From the sequence record NC_106721.1: DNA of 64,000 bases. One strand, written 5' to 3'. A program made the translations under genes and the position numbers. Positions 60,747 through 64,000 of the stretch are shown piece after piece. This stretch comes from Escherichia phage EC148. Below the pieces are notes generated by a model. The model did no database searches, had not been told where the DNA came from, and saw only the letters and a list, made by a program, of their open reading frames with translations. The first letter of the stretch is position 1. Each line of letters begins with the position of its first letter.

Positions 60747-62504
60747 TTAGGTAAGGCGTTGAACTGTTACTCTTAATCTAGGTAGAAAAACTGCACTACC
60801 TAAACTTACGTGCATAACTACCCCTAACTCTACATTTCCATTCCCCAGATTTTTAGCAGTATATATAAAACTATTTCTACTTAGGGCATTGTTAGGTGTG
60901 TATCTAAAAGCAGATGTAGTATGAAAAGGTACTAAATACCCTACTGGTAATGTTAAAATCTGGTGGAATATCGCGTCACCATTACTATAACTATATGCTC
61001 TTCTTCCTTGCACCTGAAACACACCGTTATTCCATGTATTAGCAGGGACACCTGCACAGTTAAGATTACCTGATATAACTTCAGTGGTAAGAATTACTGT
61101 AGCATTGCCACCCGGTATACCTAGCCCAATAGTTGATAAACCAACGTATCTATCTCCTGTTCCTGGGTAGCTGGGGGTAATATCATCTCCCATATAAGAA
61201 CTACCTACATTTCCACCAAAAAGTCGTAATGGAACTGCTGATGGTCCCCAAACAACCCCGTGTTCATTACCGATAGTATTATCATTAGAGTTTACGTACC
61301 ATTGCTTACCAGCTCCGAATTTGTAAATACTAATTTGAGACTTAGCCCCTCCATAGTCCACAGGAGACCATAAACTCCCGTTACTAGAACCTACAAGTTC
61401 ACACCTTGCGGTGGTATCCCCAAAGGCCCCAGTATATGCTGCATTATTTCCAATATATTCCATATCTGGTCTATAACCTAAGTTACCGAAAGCGTTCTGG
61501 TTAATAAACTTGTATCCAGTATTGGGAAGACTAACCCCTTTAATTATGAAATTAGAAGGAGATATAAGAATATCTGAACCAGTAAAAGGATTACCAGAGA
61601 TACTCATACCACCATTTGAGTATCTTAAATTCAAAACGTACCAAATAACTTTAGTAGGAGTTATGTTATACCAATCTTGTAGTATTGTAGAATCACCAGA
61701 TTGATTAGCTAAATTAGTTGTAGAACCCCTACAAACAAACCTATTACCCCCATCATGATACATAGTATTTACATTACCAGGAAGACCTTGTCTTACCCCA
61801 CCATACCCACGTATGTTAGAGTTACAAACATAGAACCAATCGTGCCCTCTGTGTGCTGATCCTAAAGGAGACATCCATCCTGGGTCCCAGTAATTTTGGT
61901 TATTCCCATCTATAGGTACTGTACTACTATTAGTAGGGAATCCTAACTGTGCAAAAGCTTCTGCAACAGTAACCCCTACTGGAGCTCCTGCACCTGGCCT
62001 AACTATACCATGATACGTACTATGTAGGGTAGTTCCACCAGTACCATTCCTAGAAATAGATTCTTCATGCCCTATAGATGGATTATAGTTATATGTACCA
62101 GATGCCAGGCTATTACCAAATGCAAATCCACTAGTCTGGGAAACACTAGCAAAAGATCTAAAAGGATCTGCTTGAGTGGCAACTATAGTTTGACCCACCT
62201 TACTCTGAGTACCATTAAGAAAAGCTCTGTGAGTACCATTAATCTCAATAGCAGTTAATATAACTCTACCAGGATCGTTAGATTTAATATTTATTATGTC
62301 AGAGGGCATCTGACATACAAAAAACCCATTTCCGGCATTTCCTAACCCAGCCTCATAAGTACCATCAACTAGGACAAATGGCATATCACTATGAAAAATA
62401 CTATTGGCATTTGGACTATAGTGACGATTAATGTCACCACCAGATTCAGTATTTAAAGATAGTACGGTCTTACCATCGCTATATTTTCCAGCGAAAAAAC
62501 CCAT
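60747..62504 (-). CDS. receptor-binding tail protein (pb5/Oad functional analog)
   Basis: 585 aa; Gly/Asn/Ser/Tyr-rich; divergent from an llp-like lipoprotein gene as in the T5 oad-llp arrangement. Confidence 0.6.
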
Positions 62505-62529: not shown

Positions 62530-62558
62530 TTGCTTTCATCCCTCTATTTTGCTATAAT
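62530..62558 (+). promoter_or_regulatory. T5-type early promoter driving llp (TTGCTT-17-TATAAT)
   Basis: Followed by AGATTCATAAATTAGAAATGGAGAG and the llp ATG. Confidence 0.7.
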
Positions 62559-62589: not shown

Positions 62590-62856
62590 ATGAAAAAGTT
62601 TGTGATTGCACTAGTTGCCGCAGTTATGTTATCTGGTTGTGCACCTGCTCCCAAACCATTTTGTACTGGATTTGTAAAATCTTTTGGTGGTGCGGGAGAA
62701 GAACATTACGGCCTCAAGGTTCAAAAAGTTCGTATTAAGGGAGATCGCTTCCCAGTAGTACAGCTCCGTACTAAGTTTGGATGGTGGGATCTCAGTCAGT
62801 TTGACCTTAAATATGGTGATTGTAAATTTAAACTAGAGCAATCTAACTACCTGTAA
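62590..62856 (+). CDS. llp: receptor-blocking lipoprotein (Llp-like)
   Basis: 88 aa; signal peptide with lipobox LSGC; T5-type early promoter 62530-62558. Confidence 0.7.
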   Translation: MKKFVIALVAAVMLSGCAPAPKPFCTGFVKSFGGAGEEHYGLKVQKVRIKGDRFPVVQLRTKFGWWDLSQFDLKYGDCKFKLEQSNYL

Positions 62857-63034
62857 TTAGTATAAAGCAAAAAGACATCTAAGTAAACTAAATTTTTTAT
62901 TTTTTGGATGGTATATTGGCAGAAACCACTATGTAAGAAAATGAGAAGTCCTTCTAGGAAGTCACAAGCATGGTTGGTTATATACAAATTATAAAATATT
63001 TTTAAAATACCATACTCATAGGAGCAAGAAAGAT

Positions 63035-63163
63035 ATGTCAAATAAAAGAAAGAACAGACGCGGAGAAGTGTACGAAGCGTGGATTAATATTTACGGATTT
63101 GGTTTTGTATTATTCCTAATCTTCGTAGGTTTTTGGTTAGCAGCTATGGCGGGGTGGATTTAA
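63035..63163 (+). CDS. small membrane protein (42 aa)
   Basis: Found by hand (below the ORF-track cutoff); AGGAG RBS; basic N-terminus then one hydrophobic helix. Confidence 0.4.
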   Translation: MSNKRKNRRGEVYEAWINIYGFGFVLFLIFVGFWLAAMAGWI

Positions 63164-63318
63164 TGGAATGGGTAATTATTGGCATATTCGTCTTATTGAT
63201 ACTTCTCTTTGTAGGCTTACGTGTAATAGATACCTCTGTAACCCAAACAGAAATTAAATTAATGCAGTTGAGTAATAGATTATCTAGAATTGAAACTTTA
63301 TTAGAGGAGCGTAAATAA
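63163..63318 (+). CDS. small membrane protein (51 aa), MEWVII family
   Basis: ATG at 63163 overlaps the upstream stop; N-terminal TM helix and C-terminal SRIETLLEERK. Confidence 0.45.
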   Translation: MEWVIIGIFVLLILLFVGLRVIDTSVTQTEIKLMQLSNRLSRIETLLEERK

Positions 63319-63425
63319 TGGAATGGGTAATTATTGCACTACTGGGGATTGTGATTATTGGGCAATGTATTTTAGATAATCATTTAGCTAGAATTGAAAC
63401 CTTACTATCGGAGAAACGTAAATGA
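63318..63425 (+). CDS. small membrane protein (35 aa), MEWVII family
   Basis: Found by hand; MEWVIIALLGIVIIG...ARIETLLSEKRK; paralog of the previous gene; TAATG overlap. Confidence 0.4.
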   Translation: MEWVIIALLGIVIIGQCILDNHLARIETLLSEKRK

Positions 63426-63616
63426 TGGAAGTGGGAATTACACTAATAGTAATATTAGTCTGGGTAATCCTCATTGTCTCTCGTATCGTGTATCTCCGCC
63501 TAAAAACTCTAGAAGCTCAGGTGAAACAACAACAAGTTATTCTAGAAAAGTTAGTACTACTGCAACGTTGTGATAGCACCCGTATTCTGCAAATTGAGAG
63601 GGAATTAGATGTTTAG
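63422..63616 (+). CDS. small membrane protein (64 aa)
   Basis: ORF track; N-terminal TM helix then predicted coiled coil; ATGA overlap. Confidence 0.45.
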   Translation: MMEVGITLIVILVWVILIVSRIVYLRLKTLEAQVKQQQVILEKLVLLQRCDSTRILQIERELDV

Positions 63617-63854
63617 TATTGTAATTGCTTTTATTATCGGGATACTTGCGGGAGTTTTCGGGACAACTGCGGCAATCAACAAGCATCGTAAATATATTGC
63701 GGAAGTATCGCGGGAGATTGCGGAAAGGGAGCGGAAGTTTGACGAGAAACGTGCGGAGTTTGAGCGGGAGTGGTCGGACGGATCTCGGGCGTCGCGGAAG
63801 AGATTCCGTGAGTTCAGACCAGAACACAGGTTTGATGACCATTCTATGCGCTAA
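63609..63854 (+). CDS. small membrane protein (81 aa) with charged GC-rich C-terminal half
   Basis: ORF track; N-terminal TM helix; C-terminal Arg/Glu-rich region encoded by unusually GC-rich DNA. Confidence 0.45.
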   Translation: MFSIVIAFIIGILAGVFGTTAAINKHRKYIAEVSREIAERERKFDEKRAEFEREWSDGSRASRKRFREFRPEHRFDDHSMR

Positions 63855-63967
63855 TTTGACTTTTGCCAAATTTCATAAGATTACACATGGAGGTGTGTCC
63901 AGTGGGTCGGGGGAGAATACTTAGTCTGCTAACCGCCACCCCCCGTTACTATTATCATGGTAATTGT

Positions 63968-64000
63968 TTCACCCTGCAACCATTTTAATTGCAGGGTGAA
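63968..64000. other. 12-bp perfect inverted repeat (hairpin) at the window edge
   Basis: TTCACCCTGCAA (63968-63979), 9-nt loop, TTGCAGGGTGAA (63989-64000). Confidence 0.7.

Follow-up and report, generated by a model that had tools for sequence, protein, structure and literature searches.

In the lytic coliphage T4, Imm and Sp are early, non-essential small membrane proteins that act after adsorption. In the temperate phage HK97, gp15 (a YebO-like moron) keeps incoming genomes out while leaving the outer-membrane receptor alone, and which phages it acts on depends on their tails (PMC3594210). Superinfection exclusion has an example of solved structure in the lipoprotein Llp of the model phage T5. 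Transcribed together with llp are four or five further genes, which are universal among the more than 400 T5-like phages sequenced and are without assigned function. They are described here for Escherichia phage EC148 (NC_106721.1), from a stretch of 64,000 nucleotides that is called the window below. At positions 63035-63854 on its plus strand, the window carries five open reading frames (ORFs), here named o1 to o5. The evidence strongly supports that these are real genes for very small single-pass inner-membrane proteins, and that they form the final coding unit ahead of the right terminal repeat. As to their function, we tentatively favour the possibility that they act at the inner membrane, where they may add to lytic conversion, or superinfection exclusion, a second layer that is independent of the receptor.

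The likeness between HK97 gp15 and the present locus lies in the type of protein, a small phage inner-membrane protein, and in the kind of activity proposed. The two are not related in sequence (a Pfam scan gave no YebO match). Moreover, gp15 is a single gene expressed from the prophage of a temperate phage, whereas here three to five coupled genes form an array in a virulent phage. T4 Imm and Sp show no similarity to o1-o5 in PHROG and Pfam scans, and differ from them in the number of transmembrane (TM) helices and in topology. Searches of Pfam, PHROGs, NCBIfam, PADLOC and PDB sequences likewise gave no similarity to the characterised exclusion proteins HK97 gp15/YebO, T4 Imm and P22 SieA.

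Counterparts that are related in sequence can be found in T5 and BF23. T5 (NC_005859) has four such genes, T5.159-T5.162, each annotated 'contains single transmembrane domain', and the BF23 hrs-llp record DQ097178 (2006) names four, Orf1 to Orf4. The likeness extends to the order of the genes, their overlaps and their position between llp and the right terminal repeat. Orthologues in the window and in T5 share 75-94% protein identity. The window differs from T5 in having one extra gene, o2, a 51-amino-acid paralogue of T5.160, and in its llp, which is of the BF23 type. By its sequence, the window is that of a Tequintavirus (T5-like) phage: its last 1.5 kb are 99.7% identical to Escherichia phage vB_EcoS_MM-1 and 97% identical to DaisyDussoix. 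The same synteny from llp to the terminal repeat, on the same strand and with overlapping junctions, is found in T5, BF23, MM-1, DaisyDussoix, HildyBeyeler and 24 IMG/VR loci.

The five genes are already known from public genomes. The first-pass annotation of this DNA had reported some of them as found by hand, which implied a novelty that does not hold: MM-1, DaisyDussoix and HildyBeyeler carry annotations for all five, labelled as hypothetical or membrane proteins, and all are in PHROGs. As sequence features they are ordinary accessory genes, annotated before, and not a new kind of element.

The region 63035-63854 (+) is fully occupied by the five consecutive ORFs, of 42, 51, 35, 64 and 81 codons, as had been claimed. 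The first gene, o1 (63035-63163), encodes 42 amino acids, is the orthologue of T5.159 and matches phrog_8596 (6e-31). It is followed by the extra T5.160 paralogue o2 (63163-63318; 51 amino acids from its ATG; phrog_6369, 1.5e-16) and by the T5.160 orthologue itself, o3 (63318-63425; 35 amino acids; phrog_6369, 3.8e-26). The orthologues of T5.161 and T5.162 are o4 (63422-63616; 64 amino acids; phrog_5851, 7.5e-31) and o5 (63609-63854; 81 amino acids; phrog_6447, 6.4e-48). In all five the PHROG match spans the full length of the profile, and a purine-rich Shine-Dalgarno-like run lies upstream of each gene. The junctions are, in order, TAATG (o1/o2), TAATG (o2/o3), ATGA (o3/o4) and an 8-nucleotide overlap, ATGTTTAG (o4/o5). 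Thus, overlaps of the ATGA or TAATG type, which had been described for the whole array, are present at three junctions and not at the fourth. We regard this anatomy of the locus with high confidence.

Very short ORFs can also be spurious or decaying, that is, chance frames in AT-rich DNA without a product. For o1-o5 such a reading can point to their small size, to the lack of proteomic detection and to RNA-seq counts close to zero for o1 and o3. It was weighed by comparing homologous ORFs from 34 loci, comprising T5, BF23-type phages, Epseptimavirus, Yersinia phiR2-01, H8, Eos and 24 IMG/VR genomes. A comparison of this kind had been proposed with the first description of the array, and in it the reading frames proved intact and their lengths conserved at each of the 34 loci. 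When all six frames were compared as a control, only the annotated one had zero stops (none across 22-31 distinct sequences per gene, with many in most other frames), and it showed the lowest ratio of non-synonymous to synonymous substitution (dN/dS). This ratio is 0.13 for o1, 0.17 for o3, 0.45 for o4 and 0.23 for the core of o5 (0.37 over the whole o5 gene), with 0.20 for llp for comparison. Thus, o1-o5 are, to judge from these ratios, under purifying selection. Indels among o5 homologues are in-frame only, the starts, stops and Shine-Dalgarno junctions are conserved, and the families are conserved as far as Epseptimavirus and Eos. Read counts this low are compatible with a mapping limit for genes of 108-129 nucleotides. 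The array exceeds chance by far, and the conservation of frame, selection and junctions effectively refutes the spurious-ORF reading, whose probability is negligible.

Every junction in all 34 loci is an overlap of 1, 4 or 8 nucleotides, regardless of which genes are present. Because the overlaps are kept whatever the gene complement, translational coupling is likely, in agreement with the coupled translation suggested earlier.

An antisense ORF of 110 amino acids (63537-63869, minus strand, TTG start) overlaps o4 and o5. It was rejected as a gene. The wobble positions of the antisense frame -1 are those of the coding frame, and its statistics follow those of the coding frame in every gene tested, including llp; the ORF is therefore an apparent by-product of the codon composition of o5.

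The proteins themselves fall into two predicted orientations. In o1 the TM helix is C-terminal (residues 22-39) and the N-terminal tail is basic (KRKNRR, five basic residues), so the protein is predicted to be tail-anchored with its N-terminus inside. In o2-o5 the TM helix spans residues 1-20, with no basic residue ahead of it and basic residues after it; by the positive-inside rule this gives an outer N-terminus and an inner C-terminus. The signal behind this prediction is strong in o4 and o5, and less so in o2 and o3. The soluble parts of all five are thus predicted to be cytoplasmic. The topology prediction suggested by the first-pass annotation therefore agrees with its small membrane proteins, and its hydrophobic helix at the start of every ORF is present in o2-o5; o1, in which the helix comes last, is reversed relative to that description. 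Another suggestion, that the proteins modify the envelope, fares less well, since a cytoplasmic topology would argue against periplasmic or outer-envelope roles.

The same predictions bear on whether o2-o5 could be spanin-like proteins that span the periplasm (type II, N-in/C-out), partnered with the lipoprotein as Rz is with Rz1. An N-terminal TM helix and a coiled coil encoded beside a lipoprotein gene do look superficially like an i-spanin/o-spanin pair. However, positive charge is missing from the N-termini and comes only after the TM helix, which predicts the opposite of the i-spanin topology. The tails, at 16-64 residues, are much shorter than those of Rz and too short for the periplasm. 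T5 already has the Rz-like genes T5.044 and T5.045, and the lipoprotein in question is a characterised receptor blocker. With separate spanins in T5, the wrong predicted topology and the short tails, a spanin role can in practice be dismissed, and its probability is minimal.

The tails of o2, o3 and o4 have an unbroken heptad pattern in which 75-78% of the a/d positions are leucine, isoleucine, valine or methionine, as in a leucine zipper; the figure for o2 is 78%. The o2 coiled-coil tail is 16 residues longer than that of T5.160. In o3 the N-terminal TM helix is followed by a short heptad helix, and in o4 by a heptad coiled coil of 44 residues. An acidic residue at position 2-3 is conserved in o2-o4. 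In o1, conserved motifs are RGEVYExWIN..GFG and AAMAGW[IL] at the end of the protein; in o3, GQCILDNHLARIE, given as the invariant GQC[IV]LDNHLARIE; and in o4, an invariant ERELDV at the C-terminal end.

Two of the genes had been noted as paralogues, and this is borne out: o2 and o3 match the same family, phrog_6369, share 37% protein identity, and have identical first 19 nucleotides plus one identical block of 13 nucleotides. The five-gene and four-gene forms of the array could presumably be interconverted if o2 and o3 recombine at their identical starts. The o4 protein may be a distant paralogue of the o2/o3 family. An hhalign comparison with that family gave 81% probability over 31 columns, a figure weakened by the TM-plus-coil nature of the sequences. 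Two deep allelic types of o4 exist, with 42% identity between them.

The o5 protein is of another kind. Its N-terminal TM helix has an invariant G11xxxG15xxG18, and EFEREWSDGSRASR[KR]RFR is a conserved motif. Half of the residues of its tail are charged, without a hydrophobic seam, and AlphaFold2 models it as one helix over residues 2-68 (pLDDT 68.6) with a disordered tail. The TM helix of o1 carries G/A-xxx-G/A motifs, so small-xxx-small motifs are present in both universal members of the array, o1 and o5. A short N-terminal TM helix followed by a charged helix is also the architecture of bacterial proteins with a cytoplasmic helix anchored at the N-terminus: the LapA domain (PF06305), ZapG/YhcB (PF06295) and the FtsL-like family NF049847. 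Matches to these models are weak and lie below the curated cutoffs (LapA_dom, 22.2 versus 28 bits; ZapG-like, 13.8 versus 33.5; FtsL_COG5462, 15 versus 50), and they are probably compositional.

The genes are most likely expressed as part of one early transcription unit that begins with llp. Upstream of llp (62590-62856, plus strand, 88 amino acids) lies a near-consensus sigma-70 promoter at 62530-62558 (+), with a -35 hexamer TTGCTT at 62530-62535, a spacer of 17 nucleotides and a TG-extended -10 hexamer TATAAT at 62553-62558. Both hexamers and their spacing are invariant in the window, T5, BF23, SuperGirl and Eos. The BF23 record DQ097178 annotates the same hexamers as the -35 and -10 of llp, and the T5 record annotates a promoter here; a simple promoter scan missed the site because TTGCTT fits only three of the six positions of TTGACA. 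A scan of the llp-o1 spacer found no terminator-like site, and the T5 and BF23 records have annotated promoters upstream of llp only. With one invariant promoter upstream and neither a terminator nor an annotated promoter in between, llp and o1-o5 are therefore probably one unit.

Two internal promoter candidates for o1 were rejected: a TG-extended TATATT at about 62909-62917, and the TATACA-16-TAAAAT proposed by the scan. The internal promoter was not adopted because its -10-like element is mutated in the close relatives Bas33 and L006 (GGTGTACT) and absent from T5.

Expression can be followed in Bas33 (HildyBeyeler), a five-gene phage for which RNA-seq data at 20 min after infection are available in two replicates (PMC13250531, Dataset S1; PRJEB101990). 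In replicates 1 and 2, llp reached 219 and 127 transcripts per million (TPM), o2 162 and 137, o4 462 and 408, and o5 22 and 13. When daunorubicin blocks the second step of DNA transfer, llp, o2, o4 and o5 all fall to about zero (PMC13250531). These genes are thus transcribed, only once the whole genome has entered, and do not belong to the pre-early class. Early expression of llp is given by Decker et al. 1994, as cited in PMC9586334.

Early transcription, together with topology, bears on a suggestion made when the array was first described, that it regulates the timing of lysis. The proteins would then resemble antiholins or otherwise modulate the holin, by binding to the cytoplasmic portion of T5.041, the holin of T5. 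Their predicted inner-membrane location and cytoplasmic tails would suit such a role. A single TM helix with a charged cytoplasmic tail is common among holin-associated proteins, and antiholins such as T4 rI can be early-expressed. However, the endolysin (T5.040), the holin (T5.041) and the Rz-like spanins (T5.044/T5.045) of T5 are clustered at 19.9-23.2 kb, about 90 kb away, and no endolysin gene adjoins the array. The array is transcribed from the early llp promoter and not with the lysis genes, and neither PHROGs nor Pfam gave a match to a holin or antiholin family. The suggestion is weakened by this distance, and a role in lysis timing is unlikely.

Co-transcription with llp, immediately downstream of it, could also mean that the proteins help Llp itself, by assisting the biogenesis, sorting or function of the lipoprotein. 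Against this, Llp alone reproduces receptor blocking (PMC9586334), and the array is conserved beside Llp types that are not homologous to each other. A further counterexample can be found in Eos, a divergent member of the Markadamsvirinae, which has the array and no lipoprotein gene: its conserved promoter lies directly upstream of the o1 homologue (38 amino acids), without llp between them. It is therefore very improbable that the proteins are Llp helpers. Most likely the array is the constant part of the unit and the lipoprotein its exchangeable part.

In Eos (locus L033, 2490-3887) no lipoprotein gene adjoins the receptor-binding protein (RBP) gene, and the o1 homologue is followed by three larger ORFs with an N-terminal TM helix and a coiled coil, of 78, 107 and 183 amino acids. 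These matched no annotated family. The Eos array resembles an enlarged form of the architecture seen in the window.

The function that we favour, a second and receptor-independent layer of exclusion at the inner membrane, is suggested by the following features. The array is expressed together with the receptor blocker, and inner-membrane exclusion proteins of small size, such as HK97 gp15, offer a precedent. The genes o1, o3 and o5 are conserved beside the non-homologous Llp/RBP modules of the T5, BF23 and H8 types. Since the array is conserved whatever the receptor type, a target common to all T5-like infections is implied. The genes are the last to enter the cell, so we infer that they would not act before the phage's own DNA is inside. 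They behave as accessory genes, with a copy number of three to five, one duplication and the loss of o4. The tight coupling, the heptad coils and the GxxxG-type TM motifs in o1 and o5 suggest that o1-o5 may form a hetero-oligomeric membrane complex. Such a complex would be made early from the llp promoter as an accessory, translationally coupled module. Once the genome of the phage is fully inside, it would alter the inner membrane, so that T5-like phages arriving later would fail to complete DNA entry, or the infected envelope would be protected in some other way. It would thereby complement Llp, which blocks the receptor in the outer membrane, and the module would not be needed for plaque formation on laboratory E. 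coli.

One form of this idea, which is rather speculative, is by analogy with T4. The array would be the T5-group counterpart of Imm, a hetero-oligomeric, receptor-independent block to the translocation of incoming DNA. It might, for instance, disturb the channel that the tape-measure protein makes. As the array lies at the very end of the injected DNA, its expression would come late enough for the phage not to exclude itself. The universal o1 and o5 would serve as the core, and specificity would be tuned by the coiled-coil paralogues o2, o3 and o4, which vary.

Several points weigh against a role in exclusion. Searches of Pfam, PHROGs, NCBIfam, PADLOC and PDB sequences found no similarity to known exclusion or defence families, and the literature searched gave no link between o1-o5 and a phenotype. 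The topology is drawn from the positive-inside rule, which is weak for o2 and o3, and coils that face the cytoplasm suit many other roles equally well. In a CRISPRi-ART screen of T5, T5.159-T5.162 and llp were all 'Not Fit' (PMC11879866). In that screen just 17 of the 162 T5 genes were Fit, and D10, D13 and N4, defined as essential by amber mutants, were also Not Fit (PMC11879866). Because so few genes are Fit and essential genes are missed, 'Not Fit' is weak evidence for dispensability. The Bas33 data, which are not strand-specific, show about zero reads for o1 and o3 (129 and 108 nucleotides). They also show an unexpectedly low o5, with a tenfold drop at this gene.

The near-zero counts of o1 and o3 are most likely a mapping artefact that affects genes shorter than 135 nucleotides. 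Mapping used reads of 150 nucleotides with a required length fraction of 0.9, so the genes are short relative to 90% of a read. A 96-nucleotide Bas33 gene within a highly expressed operon likewise has 0-3 reads. Counts across bas33_0187-bas33_0191 are uneven, with 1704 reads for o4, 104 for o5 and 5363 for the downstream HNH gene.

Much of the same evidence would fit host takeover or counter-defence. Here the anchored coils would neutralise a component of the host inner membrane, such as an abortive-infection or defence sensor, a protease, or the division or transport machinery, and would matter in natural hosts and not in K-12. The genes are lineage-restricted ORFans of variable content, are expressed early together with llp, and are dispensable in the K-12-based CRISPRi-ART screen. 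The genes o4 and o5 evolve faster than the others (whole-gene dN/dS of 0.45 and 0.37), and PHROGs places o5 in the category 'moron, auxiliary metabolic gene and host takeover'. On the other side, no known anti-defence or defence family is matched. The genes o1 and o3 and the core of o5 are strongly conserved across phages of Escherichia, Salmonella and Yersinia, unlike hypervariable arms-race genes. Host takeover is thus a doubtful, though possible, explanation. Such probability as remains beyond exclusion and the alternatives described here belongs to something else.

If the array does provide a second exclusion layer, or a complex for takeover at the membrane, it would complete the picture of lytic conversion in T5. 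It would also bear on cocktails of T5-like phages, in which the mutual exclusion of members is a concern.

The distribution of the genes was determined by a tblastn census over 50,697 phage records. The o5 core was found in 442 records and o1 in 427. The window-type alleles of o4 and o3 are present in at least 192 and at least 189 records, respectively. The gene o2 was found in only 33 records, of about 430 genomes. Arrays occur in a three-gene form (o1, o3, o5), a four-gene form as in T5, and a five-gene form, and o4 is missing from 9 of the 34 loci compared. The five-gene form in the window is a minority variant.

Word-indexed searches with o5 and o1 gave no homologues beyond T5-like phages. 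When 1.84 billion representatives were searched exhaustively with an o5 profile, only five clusters were returned, all of them T5-like. Searches of o1-o5 against Pfam, NCBIfam, PADLOC and PDB sequences gave nothing over threshold. The best matches below threshold were LapA_dom, FtsL-like, SecE and HIV Vpu, which were rejected as families, the likeness being compositional or architectural. In the literature searched, no mention of T5.159-T5.162 was found. The ORFs downstream of llp are not taken up in the papers on the structure of Llp and on the genome of BF23, and the HIDEN-SEQ preprint is without T5-group data.

The gene beside the array had been described as encoding a receptor-blocking lipoprotein, and this is firmly upheld: llp ends 178 nucleotides upstream of o1, and its product is 100% identical to BF23 Llp, with only 30% identity to T5 Llp over 67 amino acids. 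The product matches phrog_1119 (Cor superinfection exclusion, 1.8e-26) and Pfam LPAM_1 (23.9 bits versus a cutoff of 20), and has the lipobox LSGC. The lipobox cysteine, the profile match and a divergent RBP neighbour together place it in the Cor/Llp group. This neighbour, at 60747-62504 on the minus strand, encodes 585 amino acids and is 67% identical to BF23 Hrs. With an Llp identical to that of BF23 and an RBP close to Hrs, the receptor module is therefore of the BF23/BtuB type.

The llp-o1 spacer (62857-63034, plus strand, 178 nucleotides) is identifiable from its sequence as the decayed, non-coding remnant of a gene. In the Epseptimavirus phages SuperGirl and EPS7, an acidic gene of 104 amino acids (phrog_16810) lies between the lipoprotein gene and o1. 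The corresponding region in relatives is 2217-2531 in locus L028, 2231-2545 in L029 and 4164-4326 in L003. T5 has a short in-frame remnant that ends in ...AIARVF*. A minus-strand 'hypothetical protein' annotated here in MM-1 (locus L001, 3348-3488) is probably spurious.

At the other end of the array, o5 is conserved only over residues 1-66. Its last 15 or so codons (63807-63854) occur in at least five unrelated versions, which correlate with homing-endonuclease insertions at the 3' end of the gene. Relatives have HNH homing-endonuclease genes inserted at the o5 3' end or overlapping it, just before the terminal repeat; variants of the o5 3' end or HNH genes are found in loci L028 (3137-3352), L032 (2927-3424) and L034 (2896-3435).

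The right terminal repeat starts at about 63896, some 42 nucleotides past the o5 stop, a boundary transferred from the MM-1, T5 and BF23 annotations. About 70 nucleotides inside it, at 63964-64000, is a hairpin with a 16-bp stem that is cut by the end of the window. To judge from its sequence and position, the hairpin is likely to be a bidirectional terminator, both of the llp-o5 transcript and of dmp. Its 9-nucleotide loop is inverted, CCATTTTAA in the window versus TTAAAATGG in the otherwise 99.7%-identical MM-1 (locus L001, 4470-4508). The megablast match between the two ended at query position 1480 because the loop is flipped within the inverted repeat.

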